64,000 nt of DNA from Klebsiella phage HMGUkp2: sequence record PV683292.1; one strand, written 5' to 3'. The position numbers were made by a program, and so were the translations under genes. The notes under the pieces were generated by a model that had not been told where the DNA came from, did no database searches, and saw nothing but the letters and a program-made list of their open reading frames with translations. Shown here piece after piece: positions 39,926-50,123 of the stretch (position 1 is the first letter of the stretch; every line of letters begins with the position of its first letter).

Positions 39926-42634
39926 ATGAAAGAATTCTTTTTAACTATCGAACAGTTAGGCAACACCATTCACGAGAGATACATCGATTCAAATGGGGTT
40001 GAACAAACTCGTCAGATTGATTATAAACCAACCCTGTTCTATCATTCTGATGTTGAATCAAAGTACAAAGATATCTATGGAATGAATTGTAAGAAAAAAC
40101 GATTCCCGGATATGAAGGAAGCTCGTAACTGGATTCGTAGAATGGAAGACATCGGGCAGGATGCAATGGGCATGGATGACTTCAAGCTGGCCTATTTGTC
40201 TGACAGGTACCCAGGTGAAATTCATTTTAACCCGGCGTTAGTTCGCCAGTGTAACTATGACATCGAAGTAACAGCACCGGAATTTCCAAAGCCTAATGAA
40301 GCCAAGTATCCTATCGATGCGTTAACTCATTACGATAGTATTGCTGATAAGTTCTATGTGTTTGACCTTCTGAATTCTCCTTATGGTAAAGTATCTAAGT
40401 GGGACCCGGTACTAGCCGGTAAGCCTGAATCAGAAGGTGGTGATGAAATCCCTCAGGATATTCTCGACCGAGTTGTTTATCTGCCGTTTGATAACGAACA
40501 AGAACTTCTTCTCGAATACCTGAATCTGTGGGAACAGCAGACACCTGTTATTCTGACAGGCTGGAACGTAGAAAGTTTCGATAACCCGTACGTTTATAAT
40601 CGACTGAAGAATGTGTTTGGTGAAAAGACTGCTAAACGTTTAAGCCCTCTTCGTAAAGTCAATAGCAAAATTATTGCCGACACCTTTGGTGATGAGCGTG
40701 AAATTATCACACCGTTGGGTATCAGTGTTCTTGACTACCTAGATTTATATAAGAAATTTAGTTTTACGAACCAGCCTTCGTATCGCCTTGACTACGTAGC
40801 TGAGTATGAACTTGGTGTAGGTAAATTAGAATACGACGGACCTATCAACAAACTTCGTGAAACTAACCACCAACGATATATTTCGTATAACATTATCGAC
40901 GTTGCTCGAGTACAACAAATCGATAAAAAACGTCAGTTCTTGAACCTGGCGTTAGATATGGCTTATTATGCTAAAATGCCGATGCAGTCTGTGTTCAGCC
41001 CTATTAAGACTTGGGATGCAATCATCTTTAACTCTTTGAAGAACGACAATAAAGTCATTCCTCAGAAAAAGCACCACATTCCACAAAGTTATCCAGGTGC
41101 ATATGTTAAAGAGCCTACTCCTAATAGTTACAAGTACGTTATATCTGCTGACTTGACATCTCTGTATCCAAGTATTATTCGACAAGTTAACATAAGCCCG
41201 GAAACTTTGCACGGCCAGTTTGCTGTTCGACCTCTTCATGAATATATCGCTGGGACCGCTCCAAAACCGAGCGAAGAATACTCTTGTTCACCTAACGGTT
41301 GGATGTATCGTAAAGATATCGATGGTGTCGTACCGGTTGAAATTAAGAAAGTTTTCGACCAGCGTAAACTTCATAAAGGATTTATGTTGGCTGCCCAACG
41401 TAATGCGGAACTTATTAAAGAAGCATTGCATAATCCAAAGAGCACTTCTGATAAATCAGAACCAACTCTTGATTACCGTTTCGATATGGAAGAAAGTATC
41501 AAGGCCCAGCTTCATGATTTGAACGAAGCTATCTTGTTGAGTATGCTTGATAAAGCAACTCGTACTGAAGTAGCCGGTATGACTGCACAGATCTGTCGTA
41601 AACTACTTATCAACTCGCTTTATGGTGCACTTGGTAACGTACACTTCCGTTATTATGACCTTCGTAACGCAACGGCAATCACTTTGTTTGGCCAGTTGGC
41701 ACTGCAATGGATTGAACGACGAGTGAACGAGTTCTACAATGAAACACTGAAGACTGGTAACCATAAGTATGTTATCTATGGTGACACAGACTCAATTTAT
41801 ATGTGTGTAGACCCATTAATTGAGAAGATTGGTGAAGACAAGTTCCGTGACACGAACCATTTAGTAGACTTCTTAGATAAGTTTGCTAAAGAAAAATTAG
41901 AGCCAGCTATTGGCCGTGCATTCCAAGATATGTGCGACTACATGAACAACAAAGAACAGCTGATGTTCATGGACCGAGAAGCTATTGCTTGTCCTCCGTT
42001 AGGTTCTAAAGGTCTTGGTGGTTTCTGGACTGGTAAGAAGCGATACGCTTTGAACGTGTATGACATGGAAGGGACTCGATATGCGGACCCTAAAATGAAA
42101 ATTATGGGCCTTGAAACACAGAAATCAAGTACTCCTAAAGCATGTCAGAAAGCGTTGAAAGAATGCATCCGTCGTATGCTTCAAGAAGGTGAAAGCTCAT
42201 TACAAGACTACTATAAAGAGTTTGAACAAGAATTCCGTAAGCAGCACTATATGACTATTGCTGGCGTTAGTTCTGCAAACAACATCGCCCAGTACGACGA
42301 TAACGGTTATCCAGGATATAAGTGCCCGTTCCATATTCGTGGAATCCTAGCTTATAACCGTGCAACCAAAAACATTCCTGATGCAGAAGCAATTGTCGAA
42401 GGTTCTAAAGTAATGGTACTCCCATTACGGGACCAGAACCCATTCGGTGATAAATGCATCGCATGGCCGTCAGGTACTCAAATTAATCCTGCTATTCGTG
42501 AAGATGTATTAAAATACCTTGACTATTCGACTTTGTTCCAGAAAACGTTTGTTAAACCGTTGTCTGGGTTTACCACGGCGGCTAGAATCAATTATGAACA
42601 TGTCGCGACCTTAGATGATATCTTAGGGTGGTAG
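39926..42634 (+). CDS. 43: DNA polymerase gp43 (family B)
   Basis: 902 aa; N-terminus MKEFFLTIEQLGNTIHERYIDSNGVEQTR matches T4 gp43; exo and pol motifs (YGDTDS) present. Confidence 0.95.
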   Translation: MKEFFLTIEQLGNTIHERYIDSNGVEQTRQIDYKPTLFYHSDVESKYKDIYGMNCKKKRFPDMKEARNWIRRMEDIGQDAMGMDDFKLAYLSDRYPGEIHFNPALVRQCNYDIEVTAPEFPKPNEAKYPIDALTHYDSIADKFYVFDLLNSPYGKVSKWDPVLAGKPESEGGDEIPQDILDRVVYLPFDNEQELLLEYLNLWEQQTPVILTGWNVESFDNPYVYNRLKNVFGEKTAKRLSPLRKVNSKIIADTFGDEREIITPLGISVLDYLDLYKKFSFTNQPSYRLDYVAEYELGVGKLEYDGPINKLRETNHQRYISYNIIDVARVQQIDKKRQFLNLALDMAYYAKMPMQSVFSPIKTWDAIIFNSLKNDNKVIPQKKHHIPQSYPGAYVKEPTPNSYKYVISADLTSLYPSIIRQVNISPETLHGQFAVRPLHEYIAGTAPKPSEEYSCSPNGWMYRKDIDGVVPVEIKKVFDQRKLHKGFMLAAQRNAELIKEALHNPKSTSDKSEPTLDYRFDMEESIKAQLHDLNEAILLSMLDKATRTEVAGMTAQICRKLLINSLYGALGNVHFRYYDLRNATAITLFGQLALQWIERRVNEFYNETLKTGNHKYVIYGDTDSIYMCVDPLIEKIGEDKFRDTNHLVDFLDKFAKEKLEPAIGRAFQDMCDYMNNKEQLMFMDREAIACPPLGSKGLGGFWTGKKRYALNVYDMEGTRYADPKMKIMGLETQKSSTPKACQKALKECIRRMLQEGESSLQDYYKEFEQEFRKQHYMTIAGVSSANNIAQYDDNGYPGYKCPFHIRGILAYNRATKNIPDAEAIVEGSKVMVLPLRDQNPFGDKCIAWPSGTQINPAIREDVLKYLDYSTLFQKTFVKPLSGFTTAARINYEHVATLDDILGW

Positions 42635-42725
42635 TATAGATTAGGCCAGGCCCTAAAGTGATTCTAGGGCCTCGCTTTAATTATTATGTAGTATAATGGC
42701 TCCGTCAACAATTGAGGAACACAAA

Positions 42726-44390
42726 ATGCGTAAAGTAGTTATCTTAGGTGCCGGTCTTGGGTCTCGCTTATATCCAATTACCAATGAGATCCCTAAAGTG
42801 CTTGTAAACTATAAACAGCACACAGTTTTTAAACACCTGGTTGATTTGTATAAAAATCAATCAGATGAAATTATTCTAGTAATTCATAGTAAATTTGATG
42901 GGCTAGTTCGTGGATACATGAAGTCGGTTGGAATAAGCGATATCACCATTCGCCATGTTGATGTATCCATAGGTTCTGCACACGCTATTGATTGTATTGC
43001 TGATGATATCGTAGGACACAACGTACTATTCAACTGGTGTGACATTATTCCGGAAGGCCACAAAGTAGAATGGGGTAACGATTATTGCTATACCTTTGGT
43101 ACAGATTGCCGTTTCACTTTTGAAGAACCGTATTTTCGTGAAATTGGGACAGGTGGCGGTGTGGTTGGCCTGTATCAAGTAGCTAAATGGCCCGGGTTCT
43201 GTTCTTTTGAAGGCAACTACGGTGAAGACCTTGCCGACAATTTAGATTCTATGGTTTATATGACCGAGCGTAAGCTAGAGGCAGTCATTGACATCGGCGA
43301 TAAGATTAAATTGGCCGAAGCACATAAAACCTCTGAGATTAATCGTGACTTTAACAAGCTCAAATTTACAGATCAACACGCTATTAAAATCCCGACTAAT
43401 GAGTATGGTAAAGAAATTCAAGCTAAAGAGCTTAAATGGTATAATTCTGTACAATCGAAATTTATTCCTACTATTGTAGATTTCACACCAGGCGAATTTA
43501 TTAAAATGGAACGAATCTACGGTAAAACCATGGCAGATGCGTACCCTCTGATGACCAAAGATACCCAAGTATTAATGGTATATAAAGTAATCAGTGCTCT
43601 GAAATCATTAGGCGGCGATATCTATATTCCTACCGACGAACAGTGGTACGCGGACGTTAAGAAAGAAGTTCTTGATAAGGTATTAATCCGCAACGATTCT
43701 ATTAAAGAACTTTTAGAAGGGTTTGCACCTGAAGGCATTACCCATGTTAATGATTTTAAAGTAGGTAAGCCAGAAAAACTGCTGGAACACGCATTAGAAA
43801 TTCTATCCGAGCATAAAGAACCGTACCAGTTGATTCATGGGGACCCGCATTATTCTAACATTATGTTTACTGATTCGGGTGATATTAAAATTATAGACCC
43901 GCGTGGATATTTTGGTAATAGCCAATACGGCCCTACCATTTATGATGAAGCTAAAGTGCTTTATTCTATTGATGGGTACGATAAATTTAATGCAGACCCA
44001 CTATGGGGCGGTATTTCTCGGAATGGCACTAGGCTGTTTGTCGAGATTGAGAAAGTAATGCCGTTAGATGATATTCCTATGTGTACCTTTAAGCATAAAC
44101 TGTGGATTGCTGTTATTTGGATGGCTTTAGCAGGCTATTTCAAGAACAATCCGCTTAAGGCTATTGGCGCTTATTATCATGGTCTATATCAGCTGAGTGT
44201 GCTGCTTAAAAGTCAGCCTCGTAAACGCAAACTTATCGATGGCACAGAAGTAACTGAAGTTAAAGACCCTATCACAGCTTCTATTATTACCAGATGCCCT
44301 GATAAATGGGAACTGCTTGATAAAGAAACTGGTGTAAAATATAAACCAATTGGTGGTAACATCACCCATCAGTGGGAACGAATTGGGTAA
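42726..44390 (+). CDS. bifunctional nucleotidyltransferase / APH-like (anomeric sugar or small-alcohol) kinase
   Basis: N-term LGAGLGSRLYPIT (GxGxRL NTase motif, GlmU/RmlA/LicC-like); C-term HGDPHYSNIMF + IIDPRGYFG (Brenner HxDxxxxN and DxG motifs of APH/choline-kinase/AmgK fold); GAGGAA RBS. Confidence 0.65.
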   Translation: MRKVVILGAGLGSRLYPITNEIPKVLVNYKQHTVFKHLVDLYKNQSDEIILVIHSKFDGLVRGYMKSVGISDITIRHVDVSIGSAHAIDCIADDIVGHNVLFNWCDIIPEGHKVEWGNDYCYTFGTDCRFTFEEPYFREIGTGGGVVGLYQVAKWPGFCSFEGNYGEDLADNLDSMVYMTERKLEAVIDIGDKIKLAEAHKTSEINRDFNKLKFTDQHAIKIPTNEYGKEIQAKELKWYNSVQSKFIPTIVDFTPGEFIKMERIYGKTMADAYPLMTKDTQVLMVYKVISALKSLGGDIYIPTDEQWYADVKKEVLDKVLIRNDSIKELLEGFAPEGITHVNDFKVGKPEKLLEHALEILSEHKEPYQLIHGDPHYSNIMFTDSGDIKIIDPRGYFGNSQYGPTIYDEAKVLYSIDGYDKFNADPLWGGISRNGTRLFVEIEKVMPLDDIPMCTFKHKLWIAVIWMALAGYFKNNPLKAIGAYYHGLYQLSVLLKSQPRKRKLIDGTEVTEVKDPITASIITRCPDKWELLDKETGVKYKPIGGNITHQWERIG

Positions 44391-44453
44391 TCCCAGTTCG
44401 TAATTAAGATGTTGAGGAGGCTAAAGCCTCCTCTTAAACTATAAGGCCTATTA

Positions 44454-44813
44454 ATGAATCTCTGTTTCGACATCGACAACACAATCACGATATGGAATAG
44501 CAACCGTGATTATCTGAATTTTGAGCCGGACCCAGAAATGGTGGCCATAATTAACAAGCTCTATGATGAAGGCCACGAGATAACCTTGTATACGGCCCGT
44601 GGTATGACCTCTTGTGGCCCTGGTCGAATTCTGACTGAAGTGGTCCCGGCTCTTGTAAAGAACCTTGAAAAAATTGGACTGAAGTATCATAACCTGCTTA
44701 CACATAAACCAAGTTATGATTTTATTATTGACGACCGGGCAATTCGTCCTGATCACTTTAAGAAAATGATTCAAGATGGCACATTTGAAACATACAAGGC
44801 GTATCATCCATGA
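44454..44813 (+). CDS. HAD-superfamily phosphatase
   Basis: FDIDNTIT (DxDxT motif I), later LYTARG and DDRA. Confidence 0.6.
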   Translation: MNLCFDIDNTITIWNSNRDYLNFEPDPEMVAIINKLYDEGHEITLYTARGMTSCGPGRILTEVVPALVKNLEKIGLKYHNLLTHKPSYDFIIDDRAIRPDHFKKMIQDGTFETYKAYHP

Positions 44814-45373
44814 GTCCTAAAATTATTGTTGTAGACGGCCCTGATAATTCAGGGAAGTCTACTTTAATTAACAAGTTACTTAATAATACTAATTTTAAGC
44901 TTATTGATTTTCCTAAGAAAATTAACGGCAAGTGTATTTCTATAGGCACCGATAACGATAAGGCTTTAGTAGAGACCTTATATAAATTTTTAGACCCTAA
45001 TTTCGTCTACATCTTAGATCGCGGTTATCCTAGTAATATTGTTTACTCTGGATTTCTTCGTGGCGAAATGGACCCGTTCGAAGAACTTAAAGACTGGGAA
45101 GAATTCAAAGAAGAGTTCAATGTCATCGAGGTTATTTTAACTCGCAATCCGTTGGACGAGGACTTTGAAGACGATCTTATTAAGCTGACTAAGGATGAGT
45201 TCAATATGACTATTCGTCAGTATGAAACCCACTTTAAGAACGTGTTCAAGATTCTTAATCATGACGGTAAGAATAATCTGCTTAACGTAGATACAGTAGA
45301 ATTAAAACGTTTGAACGGCTATATTAATTATGAGGTTAGTAAACGAAACGCATTACAAAGGCCTCTACATTAA
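44810..45373 (+). CDS. P-loop kinase, thymidylate-kinase/dNK-like
   Basis: IVVDGPDNSGKSTL Walker A; LDRGYPSNIVYSG (DR motif); ATGA-coupled to HAD gene. Confidence 0.55.
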   Translation: MSPKIIVVDGPDNSGKSTLINKLLNNTNFKLIDFPKKINGKCISIGTDNDKALVETLYKFLDPNFVYILDRGYPSNIVYSGFLRGEMDPFEELKDWEEFKEEFNVIEVILTRNPLDEDFEDDLIKLTKDEFNMTIRQYETHFKNVFKILNHDGKNNLLNVDTVELKRLNGYINYEVSKRNALQRPLH

Positions 45374-45523
45374 TTACTGACGGCAAAGCTATATACTATG
45401 ATTAATTCAAAACCTTAATGAATAAAGGTGAATTTGAATTTTTAATCTTATAACCAAACTTATAAAAATAATTTAAAGTAAGACCTGCAAAAACCGTCGC
45501 GTCAGTTAACAACGAGATGCAAA

Positions 45524-46684
45524 ATGAATATTTTTAAAGTAGGAACAAATTTCGATTTAGCTTTGTTGGATAAAATTGTAGAACTCAGCAAAAAATATCC
45601 GAACAGCCTTATTAACGAGGTATACGGCTCTACTAGAGAAATGGCCTTCATCGCAGCAAGGCCTGATTTCAGATTACCTGATGTCGGGAAGTCTTTTCTT
45701 GAAGAGTATGTCAAGCGCTGTAATGAACTAGGAATCTGTTTTAATTATACTTTTAACACAATAAATCCAGGTTCAAAACGAGAACTTGATGAATGGAAAA
45801 AGAAAGCTATTCAAGAGTACGTTCAGTATCTTTGGTCTATAGGTGTTTGGCGTATCACTATAGCTAACCCAGTTGTAATGGAAATTGTTCGTGAAGTCAA
45901 TAAAGAGATTGAGATCGAAGTTTCAACTATACTTCATATTGATGCCGTGACTCAAATCAAATATCTTCACGACCAATACAACATTAAGAAAGTGTGTTGT
46001 GGAATTCATAAGAACCGGTCTGTTAACTTCTTGAAGCAGGCCGCGGCGTTTTGTAATGAAAACGGAATTATTTTTGAAGTCCTTGTTAACGAGTTCTGTT
46101 CTAACGCCGGAAAAGGTTATACAACTCACTGCAGTTATCGTGACTCTTGTTATATTTTCCATAGCACAGATGTTACAGCTGACGATGCTAAATCCTTAAA
46201 TGGCTATCCGATGCAACACTGCATTAAAGCTCGAGACACTGATCCGTTTAACTGGTTACGAACTCGCTTTGTTCGCCCGCAAGACCTGCATCTGTACCGT
46301 GACATCGGTATCACACAGTTCAAAGTTTCTGGACGTACTGGCTCAACTGAGTACATTATGAAGGTCCTTGAGGCGTATTCTTCAGAGAAGTTTGAAGGTA
46401 ATCTTCTTGAGCTGTGGAAACCTCTCGAAACCATCTACAATGGCGAATCAGATGCTAACTATAGCCATACCGTGAACATCGAAACATCGCTGTTAGACGG
46501 CTTTCTTGAAAAACGTTGGTTCAAACATCCTACGTTTGATTGCGCTAATGAAGTCTGCGGCAGTACTTGTACTTACTGTGAGCGTTACTATAAGCGTCAG
46601 TTATCTAAAAATGACCGCCCGCTGAATTCTATTCAGATCGTAGACGTTACCAGTTCAGACGACGAACTTCGTTACCCAGAATAA
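45524..46684 (+). CDS. peptidase-U32-family Fe-S protein (UbiU/UbiV/RlhA/TrhP-like putative hydroxylase)
   Basis: 386 aa; NEVYGS, ICFNYTFNT, FEVLVNEFCSNAGKGYTTHCSY and FKVSGRTGSTEYIMKV align to the U32 core (DAVYIG / AINT / FGSLC..EGRCYLSSY / VKIEGR.RSP.Y); Cys cluster CGSTCTYC at C-terminus. Confidence 0.55.
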   Translation: MNIFKVGTNFDLALLDKIVELSKKYPNSLINEVYGSTREMAFIAARPDFRLPDVGKSFLEEYVKRCNELGICFNYTFNTINPGSKRELDEWKKKAIQEYVQYLWSIGVWRITIANPVVMEIVREVNKEIEIEVSTILHIDAVTQIKYLHDQYNIKKVCCGIHKNRSVNFLKQAAAFCNENGIIFEVLVNEFCSNAGKGYTTHCSYRDSCYIFHSTDVTADDAKSLNGYPMQHCIKARDTDPFNWLRTRFVRPQDLHLYRDIGITQFKVSGRTGSTEYIMKVLEAYSSEKFEGNLLELWKPLETIYNGESDANYSHTVNIETSLLDGFLEKRWFKHPTFDCANEVCGSTCTYCERYYKRQLSKNDRPLNSIQIVDVTSSDDELRYPE

Positions 46685-46686
46685 GC

Positions 46687-46709
46687 AAAGAGGCTTAGGC
46701 CTCTTTTAG
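46687..46709 (+). terminator. intrinsic terminator
   Basis: AGAGGCTTAGGCCTCT + TTTT. Confidence 0.65.
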
Positions 46710-46727
46710 TATATAATAGGATTTTTA

Positions 46728-47441
46728 ATGTCAGAGCACAACAGAATGAAACATATTTCATATCCGTCTTTCCAGACCGCATTCAAAGTACTGAATGAAG
46801 AGATTCTCAACAATCCGCAGTTCGTTATTGATTCTCGTATTGGCCGTTGTAATGAAATCGGTTCTGCTTCAATTGAAGTAACCGATCCGACAACGTTCAA
46901 ATTCACTGATCCTCGTATCAACCGCATTAGTTATGAATATGCCGAAGCCTTCTGGCAATTCATGATTTCTGGTGGTACTGATGCTGCTGAAGCATTTAAG
47001 GAATACCCGAATGTTGCTAAGTTCATTGATAAGCCGAAAAGTGACGTACTGCCTGCAAACTTCAACACTTTCTATGGGCCTCGAATTGCTGCCCAGCTCC
47101 CAGCCTTACTTAAAGAGCTTAAAGAAAAGGCTAACTCGCGACGGGTTGTATTCCAAATTCTTCAAGAGAAAGACCAAGCACTGTTAGATTCAGATGAATC
47201 CCTCGAATACCCGTGCACAGATTCTATAACATACTATATCCGTGAAGGCAAGCTTTATGCCCATACACATATGCGTTCACAGAACTGTGCTGTAGTGATG
47301 CAGCTGGACTTTTATCTGCAAGGCAAGTTAATGCAATACATTGCAGATCAATGTGGTGTACAATTAGGTACGTATTCTCACACTATGGTTTCAGCCCACG
47401 TCTTTGAACGTGATTTTGATTATGTAAGAGGTTTTATCTGA
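46728..47441 (+). CDS. 42: thymidylate-synthase-fold pyrimidine (dCMP?) hydroxymethylase, gp42-like
   Basis: 237 aa; EYPCTDSITYYIREGKLYAHTHMRSQNCAV aligns with gp42 DFMCTNTVQYLIRDKKINAVVNMRSNDVVF (catalytic Cys, RS-x-N/D phosphate site); downstream LDFY Asp at the specificity position. Confidence 0.65.
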   Translation: MSEHNRMKHISYPSFQTAFKVLNEEILNNPQFVIDSRIGRCNEIGSASIEVTDPTTFKFTDPRINRISYEYAEAFWQFMISGGTDAAEAFKEYPNVAKFIDKPKSDVLPANFNTFYGPRIAAQLPALLKELKEKANSRRVVFQILQEKDQALLDSDESLEYPCTDSITYYIREGKLYAHTHMRSQNCAVVMQLDFYLQGKLMQYIADQCGVQLGTYSHTMVSAHVFERDFDYVRGFI

Positions 47442-48337
47442 TGGCTTATTTCCGTGTACCAATCTTTAGTATGCGAAGCTATGAAACTGGTGAATACGCC
47501 GTCCTTAAGGACGGCAACTTCCAGTTACATTTGAATCGTGCTAGTGCTGGTGATATCATCGCGGTTCCACGTAATGCAAGTGATATCGAAGAGTGTAAAG
47601 AACTATTCCCAGAGTTTGAATTTGTCCCTCTTTGGTACAAGGAAAATGCTTATGAAACTCGTAAACATTTCTGGGAAGAAAATCAGTTTATAGTTGATTC
47701 TTTAGTTGATTACTACGACTGCTCTTATCTAGTGACAGATATTACTGGATATCAAGGCAAACACGAGGTATTCTTTGTTTTTAATATAACTAAAGACCCT
47801 GAGAATCCTCGGTATTATATTGACGAGTTTATTGACATTGACGTTGAATCTGTAAACAAGTCTGTAGCAACGTTTGTTCTTAATCATGGCCAGAAAGACG
47901 TTCTCGTAGCGGCAGGTGCAATTCCGGGCCGTATCTTTGTAGATCAACGGGTCATTAAGCCGAGTGTCATGGAACGTTATACGGAAGGCCTGGAACCAAT
48001 CCACCTTGATGGTATTTTTCATCCATTCCGTATCAGCGATCCGTGTTATCGTTTCGACCAAGTTGTCGAATGCGCTATTGCAGCAGATAGCGTCTTGTAT
48101 ATCACAGACCCGAACATGAGTTTCAAACGTGAACTGTATCCTGAAGAAGCAAAGATCCATGTTCTTCGTCTGTCTAAGAAAGAATACTATCAAGTACTAA
48201 TGGGTCGACCGACTATCCAGTACTTTGAAGACCCTGAAAAAGTGTTTCACCCTGGGTTAGCAGAGTTTATCTATTTTAATGCTAAAATAAATTCTCCATA
48301 TAATATTCCTGCTTATAACCATGTGGTAATTAATTAA
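47441..48337 (+). CDS. hypothetical 298-aa protein in beta-glucosyltransferase position, translationally coupled to hydroxymethylase (candidate DNA-modifying transferase)
   Basis: ATGA coupling; no motif I can assign. Confidence 0.45.
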   Translation: MAYFRVPIFSMRSYETGEYAVLKDGNFQLHLNRASAGDIIAVPRNASDIEECKELFPEFEFVPLWYKENAYETRKHFWEENQFIVDSLVDYYDCSYLVTDITGYQGKHEVFFVFNITKDPENPRYYIDEFIDIDVESVNKSVATFVLNHGQKDVLVAAGAIPGRIFVDQRVIKPSVMERYTEGLEPIHLDGIFHPFRISDPCYRFDQVVECAIAADSVLYITDPNMSFKRELYPEEAKIHVLRLSKKEYYQVLMGRPTIQYFEDPEKVFHPGLAEFIYFNAKINSPYNIPAYNHVVIN

Positions 48338-48362
48338 TAAGTTTATTTTGTAAACCAGGCGG

Positions 48363-48415
48363 TTTACAATGGTGTAGGAGCGTGTTAAAGTGTTCCTACA
48401 CATTTGGAGAAAACT
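48363..48415 (+). promoter_or_regulatory. early promoter-stem-loop cassette m
   Basis: GTTTACAATGGTGTAGGAGCGTGTTAAAGTGTTCCTACAC. Confidence 0.55.
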
Positions 48416-48856
48416 ATGAAACTTAAATCAATTATAGTACTGTCTGCATTAACTCTTACTGGCTGTGCTCAGACTGAAGGATACCCGTATCGTCTTTCTG
48501 ATGTAGGTACAATCTTTACTGTTGGTGGTAACAATATAGGTTATGTCCGTAACGCAAATGCTAATCAGGTTCACTATTCTAGCGACCATGAAGAAGCAAT
48601 GGCTATGAAACGAGAACATGACGCCAAGATGGATGCCATAATCGCCGGTGAGCAAGCAAAGCAACCTAAAAACTCACCATTCAAACGACAGTGTGAAATC
48701 AACTGGAAACTGGATGAAGCCGTACTTCAGCAGCGTTTAATGAATTCTTCTATTCATAACTACGAAGCTAACTATAAAGCCCTGAACAACCATAGGCTGG
48801 CTGCTTATTCCAAAGTGGAAAAGTGTATAGCTAAGGCTGAAGCCAAAGCAAAGTAA
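48416..48856 (+). CDS. lipoprotein
   Basis: MKLKSIIVLSALTLTGC lipobox. Confidence 0.55.
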   Translation: MKLKSIIVLSALTLTGCAQTEGYPYRLSDVGTIFTVGGNNIGYVRNANANQVHYSSDHEEAMAMKREHDAKMDAIIAGEQAKQPKNSPFKRQCEINWKLDEAVLQQRLMNSSIHNYEANYKALNNHRLAAYSKVEKCIAKAEAKAK

Positions 48857-48953: not shown

Positions 48954-50123
48954 ATGTCCGATTTGAAATCTCGCCTGATTAAAGCTTCTACCACTAAACT
49001 GACCGCTGATCTGACTAAATCAAAATTGTTCAATGATCGTGATGAAGTTATGACACGAATTCCTATGCTGAACATCGCATTAGGCGGTAGCTTGAATAGT
49101 GGTTTACAAAGTGGCTTAACAATCTTTGCTGCACCATCCAAACACTTTAAAACTCTGTTTGGTCTGACTATGGTTGCTGCATATATGAAGAAATATCCGG
49201 ATGCGATTTGTCTGTTCTACGACAGCGAATTTGGTGCTTCTGAAAGTTATTTCCGTTCAATGGGTGTTGACCTGGAACGTGTTGTCCATACTCCGATCCA
49301 GTCAGTTGAACAACTGAAAATTGATATGGTCAATCAGCTGGAAGCTATCGAACGCGGTGACAAGGTGATTATGTTCATCGACTCTATCGGTAACACAGCC
49401 TCTAAGAAAGAAACACAAGATGCTTTAGACGAGAAACAGGTCGGTGACATGACTCGTGCTAAATCTCTTAAATCTTTGTTCCGTATCGTTACGCCTTATT
49501 TGACGATTAAAGATATCCCTTGTGTGGCTATTAACCATACAGCTATGGAAATCGGCAGTATGTATCCTAAAGAAGTTATGGGTGGTGGTACCGGCATTCT
49601 TTATTCTGCAAGTACCGTATTCTTTATTTCTAAACGTCAGGTTAAAGAAGGTACTGAACTGACCGGGTATGATTTTACTCTTAAAGCCGAGAAATCTCGT
49701 ACGGTCCAAGAGAAATCTACGTTCCCGATCACTGTTAACTTCAAGGGTGGTATCGATCCGTTCTCTGGACTGCTTGAACTGGCCACAGAAATTGGCTTTG
49801 TTGTTAAACCTAAAGCAGGCTGGTATTCTCGTGCTTTCTTAGACGAAGAAACTGGTGAAATGGTTCAAGAAGAAAAGTCATGGCGTGCTAAAGCCACAGA
49901 TGACGTAGAATTCTGGGGTCCTTTGTTTAAACACAAGCCATTCCGTGACGCAATCGAAACAAAATATAAACTCGGTGCTGTTTCTTCTATTAAAGAAGTT
50001 GACGATGCGGTTGCTGATCTGTTATCTTCTAAACCAACGTCTAAAATTCCGGTAAAAGCCAAATCAGCTCCTAGTGCTGCTGACATTGAAGACGAACTGG
50101 AAAATTTCGCTGATGAAGAATAA
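48954..50123 (+). CDS. uvsX: recombinase UvsX (RecA-like)
   Basis: 389 aa; MSDLKSRLIKAST.KLTA.LT.SK.FN..D ... high identity to T4 UvsX throughout. Confidence 0.95.
   Translation: MSDLKSRLIKASTTKLTADLTKSKLFNDRDEVMTRIPMLNIALGGSLNSGLQSGLTIFAAPSKHFKTLFGLTMVAAYMKKYPDAICLFYDSEFGASESYFRSMGVDLERVVHTPIQSVEQLKIDMVNQLEAIERGDKVIMFIDSIGNTASKKETQDALDEKQVGDMTRAKSLKSLFRIVTPYLTIKDIPCVAINHTAMEIGSMYPKEVMGGGTGILYSASTVFFISKRQVKEGTELTGYDFTLKAEKSRTVQEKSTFPITVNFKGGIDPFSGLLELATEIGFVVKPKAGWYSRAFLDEETGEMVQEEKSWRAKATDDVEFWGPLFKHKPFRDAIETKYKLGAVSSIKEVDDAVADLLSSKPTSKIPVKAKSAPSAADIEDELENFADEE

Follow-up and report, generated by a model that had tools for sequence, protein, structure and literature searches.

Klebsiella phage HMGUkp2 (sequence record PV683292.1) carries, between its DNA polymerase gene and uvsX, three consecutive genes that raise the question of which sugar is activated at this locus and onto which molecule it is transferred. 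The genes are located at 42726-45373 on the + strand of the 64,000-nucleotide stretch analyzed here, called the window in the following, and encode a fusion of a nucleotidyltransferase (NTase) and a kinase, a small HAD phosphatase and a P-loop kinase of the thymidylate kinase (TMPK) fold. A first-pass annotation had described them as a donor-activation module for a nucleotide-sugar, linked to a neighboring '42-like' gene. This description holds; the orthologs of the fusion are RB69 gp53:52, DLP3 gp82 and HY126 AfhE. With a probability of about 0.8, the three genes represent the part of the Marfavirus cluster for DNA hypermodification with arabinosyl-5-hydroxycytosine that makes the sugar donor, together with one nucleotide kinase.

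A probable RB69-type hypermodification cluster

The window belongs to a T4-like phage. Its region 42600-48400 displays 96.8% DNA identity to Klebsiella phage Marfa (Marfavirus), and the whole 64-kb window maps to Marfa 68,449 to 4,568 in reversed orientation. In a tblastn search with the RB69 proteins, the entire block proved to be orthologous to genes 45-53 of RB69, with an RB69 counterpart for all six genes:

42726-44390, + strand: NTase-kinase fusion, 554 amino acids (aa); ortholog of RB69 gp53:52, DLP3 gp82 and HY126 AfhE
44454-44813, + strand: HAD phosphatase, 119 aa; ortholog of RB69 gp51, DLP3 gp81 and HY126 AfhF
44810-45373, + strand: thymidylate-kinase-fold P-loop kinase, 187 aa; ortholog of RB69 gp45
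45524-46684, + strand: Peptidase_U32-family protein, 386 aa, 13 Cys; ortholog of RB69 gp50
46728-47441, + strand: predicted ThyA-family 5-hydroxy-dCMP synthase, the '42-like' gene; ortholog of RB69 gp48
47441-48337, + strand: putative DNA arabinosyltransferase 1, 298 aa; ortholog of RB69 gp47:46

The system as such has already been described, down to this phage genus. RB69, DLP3 and HY126 make arabinosylated 5-hydroxycytosine, which is present in a mono- to tri-arabinosylated form in the DNA of RB69 and DLP3 (Lee et al., NAR 2026, PMC13326640). Here, gp48 of RB69 and gp80 of DLP3 produce 5-hydroxy-dCMP (5hodCMP) with O2 and flavin, and UDP-arabinofuranose (UDP-Araf) has been shown to be the donor for the DLP3 glycosyltransferases in vitro, the third arabinose being added on DNA (PMC13326640). 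For the first arabinosylation, the authors could not distinguish between a mononucleotide and DNA as the acceptor, while the later sugars are added on DNA (PMC13326640). The Marfaviruses are among the genera in which the syntenic cluster was found in this analysis (PMC13326640). The genes had already been proposed as candidates for making UDP-arabinose (Thomas et al., 2018; 2021 survey, PMC8056088).

The HMGUkp2 cluster resembles those of RB69, DLP3 and HY126 in its domain architecture, in its catalytic motifs and in its position in the slot between polymerase and uvsX, and the orthologs are 38-89% identical. Also the partners are the same, namely the HAD phosphatase, the TMPK-like kinase, the U32 protein, a ThyA homolog with the exchange D169N and the glycosyltransferase. 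In contrast to the RB69-type clusters, the kinase gene of the window has moved from beside the glycosyltransferase gene to an ATGA overlap with the HAD gene, and the fusion is divergent. For the UDP-arabinofuranose route of HY126, RB69 and DLP3, further references are He et al. (2026, Nat Chem Biol) and Mahler et al. (2025, Cell Host Microbe).

The NTase-kinase fusion

The fusion protein consists of an N-terminal sugar-1-phosphate NTase domain (approximately aa 1-200, 42726-43325) and a C-terminal kinase domain of the APH fold (approximately aa 201-554). Both are recognized by Pfam (NTP_transferase with 31 bits, cut-off 21.2; APH with 26.6 bits, cut-off 23.2), and phrog_4098 matches the protein in full length (protein 1-553 versus profile 1-559, E 5.5e-260). 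The domain boundary at about residue 200 agrees with the frameshift split in RB69 as well as with the kinase-only family phrog_21938. Within the NTase half, the motifs GLGSRL (aa 10-15, 42753-42770) and PKVLV (aa 23-27) are present, and within the kinase half the Brenner motif HGDPHYSN (aa 371-378, 43836-43859) and DPRG (aa 391-394). An alignment of 70 family sequences revealed that G10, R14, K24 and D106 of the NTase half and K221, E235, G372, D373, S377, N378 and D391-P-R-G394 of the kinase half are invariant. The first-pass annotation had placed a GxGxRL NTase motif and an HGDxxxxN Brenner motif in one 554-aa polypeptide; both are indeed present, and their key residues are invariant. The 'DxG' motif that it had ascribed to the kinase needs correction: the downstream metal-site aspartate exists as IDPRG (D391), whereas the DSG at 383-385 is not conserved.

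The AlphaFold (AF2) model of the fusion reached a predicted local distance difference test score (pLDDT) of 94.1 and a predicted template modeling score (pTM) of 0.90; one structure prediction was run on an alignment that did not contain the RB69 and JS98 rows. The modeled N-terminal domain resembles MurU, LicC, IPCT and RmlA (template modeling score of approximately 0.7 on the target) and the C-terminal domain resembles APH(2'')-IIa (3ham). The comparison with MurU and LicC, which had been suggested at the outset, was therefore well chosen, as these are top structural matches to the N-terminal domain. On sequence level, the fusion scores 22 bits against the NCBIfam MurU profile at a cut-off of 370, a similarity at superfamily level only.

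The fusion is present in full length in 367 phage records. For the HY126 ortholog AfhE, the activities of an arabinose-5-phosphate 1-kinase and of a UDP-arabinose pyrophosphorylase have been reported (He et al., 2026, as far as summarized in PMC13326640). By orthology, the HMGUkp2 protein is most likely an AfhE-type kinase/UDP-arabinose pyrophosphorylase. In phage Thanatos, the fusion ortholog TH1_060 has been shown to be essential for propagation (PMC12838424).

Distant relatives of the fusion join HAD, SIS, NTase and kinase domains in one protein of 953-967 aa, or NTase, kinase and SIS domains in one of 737 aa. These fusions provide an independent 'Rosetta stone' support for a single four-step pathway. 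The four-activity fusions are P0081 (L008 7001-9862), P0084 and P0120; the neighbors of P0081 are a 1553-aa family-B DNA polymerase, a UCH protease and a sulfotransferase, and its contig has the appearance of a eukaryotic giant virus.

In bacteria, a 494-aa homolog of the fusion is located directly upstream of a SIS isomerase with 31% identity to RB69 gp55. This pair lies within a flagellin/FliD/FliS island (L010 2040-10732). The fusion gene is preceded there by four LicD genes, and downstream of it come the SIS isomerase, a gene for a 127-aa protein and one for a GT2 glycosyltransferase. A descent of the phage module from a bacterial surface- or flagellin-glycan pathway is thereby suggested. 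The 127-aa gene was considered as an AfhF homolog and was rejected, as no BLAST similarity was found.

A bacterial glycan ancestry leads to the question whether the phage module itself decorates a surface glycan of the host (capsule, lipopolysaccharide (LPS) or flagellin) instead of DNA, for example in superinfection exclusion. The bacterial relatives in an island of the flagellin-glycosylation type would fit to this, and the HAD protein falls into a 'capsule biosynthesis phosphatase' subfamily. Nevertheless, such a function is most improbable, since in hundreds of T4-like phages with modified DNA the module keeps its place between polymerase and uvsX, beside a 5hodCMP synthase and a DNA glycosyltransferase, and neither a membrane glycosyltransferase nor a flippase was found within the cluster.

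The HAD phosphatase

The 119-aa protein contains all HAD motifs I-IV and has no cap domain. The motifs are DIDNT (aa 6-10, 44469-44483), TAR (aa 47-49) and a K...IIDD stretch ending at aa 94, so that the DxDxT motif noticed earlier is genuine. The protein is 66% identical to RB69 gp51 (tblastn) and matches the PDB entries 9iqw with E 8e-55 over aa 1-119 and 1xpj with E 1.7e-10. The capsule-biosynthesis phosphatase profile TIGR01689 is matched with E 3.8e-13 and 49.5 bits, which is under its cut-off of 162. The sequence of 9iqw is RB69-gp51-like, and we infer that 9iqw is the HY126 protein.

AfhF of HY126 takes the 5-phosphate off arabinose-1,5-bisphosphate (He et al., 2026, in the summary given in PMC13326640), and the HAD protein of HMGUkp2 is predicted to be an arabinose-1,5-bisphosphate 5-phosphatase as well. 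The earlier proposal that it either makes a free sugar or alcohol or destroys dNMP has to be abandoned, as the ortholog AfhF is reported to act on arabinose-1,5-bisphosphate between the kinase and the NTase step.

The ThyA homolog, the glycosyltransferase and the U32 protein

The '42-like' gene encodes a ThyA homolog that is 80% identical to RB69 gp48, the experimentally tested protein, and matches PDB 9iqc/9ir2 with E 1.4e-131. As in RB69 gp48, Asn is found at E. coli ThyA position 169, together with Asp 177 and Glu 143, and the catalytic C146 is kept; in the alignment, RSQN of the window stands at position 169 against RSCD of E. coli and RSND of T4 gp42. The signature D169N/N177D/L143E, which is that of a flavin/O2-dependent 5-hydroxy-dCMP synthase (PMC13326640), indicates that the product is a hydroxylase and not a hydroxymethylase. 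The link of the module to the '42-like' gene within the cluster is retained, and this gene does not encode a dCMP hydroxymethylase.

The adjacent 298-aa protein is 67-73% identical to RB69 gp47 and gp46 and belongs to phrog_3891 (E 9.5e-155); searches of Pfam and of PDB sequences gave no match. Due to its orthology to the protein named in PMC13326640, it is a putative DNA arabinosyltransferase 1.

The 386-aa protein, first taken as a possible radical-SAM enzyme, is revealed by Pfam to be a member of Peptidase_U32 (PF01136, 43.6 bits versus a cut-off of 22.4), and it is 89% identical to RB69 gp50. It contains a CX4CX3CX2C motif at aa 340-352. The U32 proteins UbiU/V, TrhP and RlhA are O2-independent, prephenate-dependent hydroxylases, of which RlhA makes 5-hydroxycytidine. 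It is therefore an attractive idea, based on analogy, that the phage protein could serve as an anaerobic back-up cytosine hydroxylase, as the ThyA-type 5hodCMP synthase needs O2. BLAST similarity to UbiU is not significant, only two Cys / Fe-S ligand positions align plausibly, and a literature search found no paper linking a U32 protein to anaerobic cytosine hydroxylation.

The TMPK-fold kinase

The third gene of the module contains the P-loop GPDNSGKS (aa 10-17, 44837-44860) and a DR motif (aa 70-71, 45017-45022), in agreement with the Walker-A and DR motifs assigned before. The protein adopts the TMPK fold with the P-loop Asp and the DR motif, and both the P-loop Asp and the DR-x3-S motif of the nucleoside monophosphate (NMP) site of TMPK are conserved in its family. 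It is 38% identical to RB69 gp45 (tblastn). The canonical TMPK profiles are missed (PF02223 with 15.5 bits versus a cut-off of 27; TIGR00041 with 19.2 versus 83.25), TMPK entries of the PDB match at E of approximately 0.1, and a comparison with the T4 gp1-type dNMP kinase (PDB 1dek) revealed no homology of the window kinase. In the model, an acidic D-F-E-D-D-L-I lies between strand E105-110 and helix H128-141, a segment which we take to be the lid and where a basic lid would be expected. This acidic stretch and the profile scores below the family cut-offs set the protein apart from canonical Tmk. The P-loop has Asn at the position where class I TMPKs have Arg.

The kinase family is narrow and phage-centered. 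An exhaustive HMMER search of 1.84 billion proteins, which was used for the family size, yielded 68 cluster representatives at E <= 0.001; a word-index search with the kinase had recovered 10 proteins. The gene is present in 343 phage records with the same genus distribution as the fusion, and its co-occurrence with the cluster is strict. In distant members, the kinase is joined to a dCMP-type ThyA domain (with N177D and a retained D169), to an HhH-GPD domain or to a UDG-like domain. These fusion members are P0169, P0156, P0157 and P0181, which carry the ThyA, HhH-GPD or UDG-like domain at the C-terminus. In RB69, DLP3 and the hexose-using phage RL38J1, the TMPK-like kinase adjoins glycosyltransferase 1 and the ThyA homolog (PMC13326640).

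From the fusions and the gene neighborhood, we favor, at about even odds, a C5-modified dCMP, namely 5-hydroxy-dCMP, as the most likely substrate, which the kinase would phosphorylate to the diphosphate. In this role, it would act in addition to a gp1-type dNMP kinase whose gene lies in another part of the genome. The first-pass annotation had counted it as a second dNMP-type kinase besides gene 1; a TMPK-fold kinase is present, and gene 1 itself is outside of the window (a T4-gp1-type dNMP kinase is found in Marfa at 71,896-72,600).

A different nucleotide substrate is also conceivable. If the first sugar were attached before replication, the kinase could act on a mononucleotide that carries the sugar already, arabinosyl-5-hydroxy-dCMP, and the dCTP used by the polymerase would be the glycosylated one. 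This would be in line with the published data, which do not separate mononucleotide from DNA for the first arabinose and in which single glycosyltransferases were inactive on 5hoC-DNA (PMC13326640). The gene order of RB69, DLP3 and RL38J1, in which the kinase adjoins the ThyA homolog and glycosyltransferase 1, fits as well, and a second kinase would suit a bulkier substrate, as gp1 already handles 5hodCMP. On the contrary, the window kinase lies apart from the glycosyltransferase and is coupled to the HAD gene, the later sugars are added on DNA (PMC13326640), and the T4 paradigm is a post-replicative glycosylation, so that this reading is unlikely. If true, it would mean a pre-replicative route of DNA glycosylation unlike the T4 paradigm. 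The earlier suggestion that the chemistry takes place at the dNMP level stands for the hydroxylation of dCMP to 5-hydroxy-dCMP, while its sugar part is unproven.

The coupling to the HAD gene, which is found in the window as well as in JS98, could also place the kinase in the sugar branch, where it would phosphorylate a sugar or regenerate UTP/UDP. It co-occurs with the fusion just as strictly as with the ThyA homolog, and its structural neighbors include PPK2 and gluconokinase-like folds. This assignment is very unlikely, since the P-loop Asp and the DR-x3-S motif of the NMP site of TMPK are conserved, and the fusion partners in distant members are ThyA, HhH-GPD and UDG domains, not sugar enzymes. 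Furthermore, the hexose-using RL38J1 keeps the TMPK-like kinase beside the ThyA homolog, and Table 1 of PMC13326640 lists no arabinose-activation gene for this phage.

The proposed pathway

Taken as an arabinosyl-5-hydroxycytosine cluster, the locus would work as follows. The host isomerases KdsD/GutQ would supply D-arabinose-5-phosphate, as the HMGUkp2 module comes without an isomerase of its own. By orthology, the C-terminal APH-fold kinase of the fusion would phosphorylate C1 to yield arabinofuranose-1,5-bisphosphate, the small HAD phosphatase would take off the 5-phosphate to yield arabinose-1-phosphate, and the N-terminal NTase would join arabinose-1-phosphate and UTP to UDP-arabinofuranose. 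In parallel, the D169N ThyA homolog would hydroxylate dCMP to 5-hydroxy-dCMP, which would then be phosphorylated and polymerized into DNA. Finally, the 298-aa glycosyltransferase would move the arabinose onto the 5-hydroxyl. The kinase, phosphatase and NTase steps are predicted from orthology and from second-hand biochemistry.

With RB69 gp55 as the probe, no match to a phage arabinose-5-phosphate isomerase was found anywhere in the window. The phage isomerase is present in 276 phage records, of which at most three are from Klebsiella phages, while the fusion is present in 24 Klebsiella records. The cluster versions of Marfavirus, Dhakavirus and the Proteus phages appear to rely on the host KdsD/GutQ. 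Also an RB69 gp3-type second arabinosyltransferase was not found, neither in the window nor in Marfa at approximately 0-29 kb and 50-85 kb. Since only one arabinosyltransferase was found, the product is predicted to be mono-arabinosylated.

An isomerase-less module of the Marfavirus/Dhakavirus type might have the same architecture and serve a different donor, by activating another pentose or by using another nucleotide such as CTP, in which case the DNA would carry an adduct other than arabinose. With the Mosigvirus, Serratia and Acinetobacter versions, the fusion shares only 43-47% identity, the window lacks a detectable phage isomerase, and the N-terminal domain is as close to the CTP-using LicC and IPCT as to the UTP-using MurU. 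The bacterial relatives adjoin LicD phosphotransferases, enzymes that use CDP-activated donors. Still, a different donor is quite unlikely. The HAD phosphatase and the glycosyltransferase retain the high identities to their RB69-type orthologs given above (66% and 67-73%), which speaks for an unchanged intermediate and donor. The host makes arabinose-5-phosphate for the synthesis of Kdo, so that the phage does not need an isomerase, and Lee et al. assign the Marfaviruses to one cluster family with the Dhakaviruses (PMC13326640).

Several points weigh against the assignment to an arabinosyl-5-hydroxycytosine cluster. Neither biochemistry nor DNA composition was found in the literature for HMGUkp2 or any Marfavirus. 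The fusion shares only 43% identity with the two RB69 halves gp53 and gp52 (tblastn with the RB69 proteins) and with the HY126-type enzymes, and as the window has no arabinose-5-phosphate isomerase while 276 other phage records do, the sugar could in principle differ. The activities of AfhE and AfhF are second-hand, taken from the summary in PMC13326640, and Table 1 of the same paper still gives another sequence of steps, which begins with the phosphatase and leaves free arabinose as the substrate of the kinase. For the TMPK-fold protein, the assignment is weak: RB69 gp1 has been shown to convert 5hodCMP to 5hodCDP (PMC13326640), the Pfam and TIGRFAM cut-offs for TMPK are not reached, and the evidence from ThyA fusions comes from one distant representative (E 1.6e-5).

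Gene layout and expression

The cluster is embedded in the following further features:

39926-42634, + strand: DNA polymerase, preceded by gp44, gp62 and regA, with which it opens the gene order
42672-42697, + strand: T4 middle-promoter-like site with a MotA-box-like TCGCTTTA (42672-42679), a 12-nt spacer and TATAAT (42692-42697), found by direct reading and a pattern scan
44414-44433, + strand: perfect 8-bp hairpin GAGGAGGC-TAAA-GCCTCCTC in the spacer between fusion and HAD gene, with no U-tract after it
45373-45462, + strand: pseudogene relic of an RB69-type HAD 3' end with in-frame stops, at the left edge of the apparent U32 cassette insertion
48404-48856, + strand: lipoprotein-like open reading frame (ORF), 150 aa, with TTG start, signal peptide and a lipobox-like LTGC; phrog_1754
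48954-50123, + strand: uvsX, which closes the polymerase-to-uvsX slot

The 150-aa ORF occupies the gap between glycosyltransferase and uvsX, where RB69 has the TMPK-like kinase instead.

The three ORFs of the module were recovered on the + strand with the limits assigned before. For the fusion, two starts are possible, 42696 (564 aa) and 42726 (554 aa), of which the latter, chosen already in the first-pass annotation, is preferred. A GAGGA (42714-42718) sits 7 nt upstream of it, the promoter-like TATAAT overlaps the ATG at 42696, the alignment with RB69 gp53 begins at 42726, and the Marfa annotation has 554 aa.

The HAD and kinase genes overlap by ATGA (44810-44813), and the stop of the ThyA homolog and the start of the glycosyltransferase overlap by TAATG (47439-47443), which indicates that hydroxylase and transferase are likewise translationally coupled. 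The fusion and the HAD gene, in contrast, are not, because a 63-nt spacer with the hairpin at 44414-44433 lies between them. The view that all three genes are translationally linked thus applies to the HAD-kinase pair only. Such a spacer hairpin is a difference from RB69 and JS98, in which fusion and HAD genes abut or overlap. A terminator scan made no terminator call at this hairpin.

Directly after the stop codon of the DNA polymerase, another 8-bp hairpin (42648-42672) overlaps the MotA-box-like TCGCTTTA. The site at 42672-42697 agrees well with a T4 middle promoter and, judged from this match, might function as one; transcription from it would begin downstream of the ATG at 42696. In a promoter/terminator scan of the window, such sites were no more numerous than in shuffled controls. 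From strand and spacing, we infer that the module genes are co-transcribed.

The annotation of the closest relative in RefSeq (NC_048798, 4853-7828) is misleading, since the HAD phosphatase is called 'phosphoheptose isomerase' and the U32 protein 'peptidase'. In addition, the 5hodCMP synthase is labeled 'thymidylate synthase' and the fusion 'hypothetical protein'.

Mosaic origin of the cluster

A blastn comparison with JS98 (Dhakavirus) revealed two matching segments, 42709-45356 with 74% and 46778-48114 with 76% identity, which are adjacent in JS98. The 1.4-kb piece 45357-46777 is absent from JS98, and with it the U32 gene is absent from the JS98-type cluster. The stretch 45373-46613, on the other hand, matches the HAD 3' end plus U32 gene of RB69 with 78% identity (blastn). 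Its first 90 nt are the relic, the last approximately 30 codons of an RB69-type HAD gene, which are riddled with stops and lie between the kinase stop and the U32 gene; in a tblastn search, RB69 gp51 aa 98-128 match 45373-45462 with 61% identity (E 3.7e-4). In RB69, the HAD gene is followed by the U32 gene, the same order as that of relic and U32 gene in the window. Taken together, the relic, the gap in JS98 and the RB69 order make the U32 gene look like a cassette which was acquired by recombination within a HAD gene and inserted into a JS98-type cluster. The translational coupling of HAD and kinase is found in JS98 as well.

The kinase shares 100% identity with its counterpart in phage Clarke_MM3, only 77% with those of the Marfaviruses F48 and PhiKpNIH-6, and 85% with that of the Dhakavirus JS10. 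The lower identity within Marfavirus than to a Dhakavirus would point to further mosaicism in the genus.

Comparison with other donor and modification pathways

The logic of the donor branch is known from nucleotide-activated (ADP/GDP-)heptose, which is made by GmhA, HldE/HddA, GmhB and HldE/HddC. This pathway likewise uses a SIS isomerase, an anomeric kinase leading to a sugar bisphosphate, a HAD phosphatase for the distal phosphate and a nucleotidyltransferase, and HldE also fuses kinase and transferase. In contrast, the module kinase has an APH/choline-kinase fold where the heptose pathway has a ribokinase or GHMP fold, the predicted sugar is a pentose, and the product would go to DNA and not to LPS. 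The pairs AmgK/MurU and LicA/LicC share with the fusion the combination of folds, an APH-like kinase and a minimal sugar-1-phosphate or phosphocholine nucleotidyltransferase, but they are separate proteins whose substrate is a free sugar or choline, and no phosphatase step is needed.

In T4, gp42, gp1 and the alpha- and beta-glucosyltransferases follow the same strategy, in which a ThyA-family enzyme modifies dCMP before replication and a sugar is then placed on the hydroxyl, and the slot is the same. T4 differs in that it uses the UDP-glucose of the host and therefore needs no donor-activation genes. Furthermore, T4 gp42 keeps D169, unlike the ThyA homolog of the window, and makes the hydroxymethyl derivative, and T4 has no TMPK-like second kinase in the polymerase-uvsX slot.

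Implications for Klebsiella phages

Arabinosylated 5-hydroxycytosine shields the DNA of T4-like phages from restriction enzymes and CRISPR nucleases and alters their sensitivity to modification-dependent defences. Due to this protection, it matters for phage therapy and phage engineering which therapeutic Klebsiella phages carry the pathway. HMGUkp2 adds a natural minimal variant of the cluster, with no isomerase, a single glycosyltransferase and U32 as an apparent recent insertion. This variant represents a clean test case for the dispensability of the isomerase, the role of the second kinase and the function of the U32 protein.

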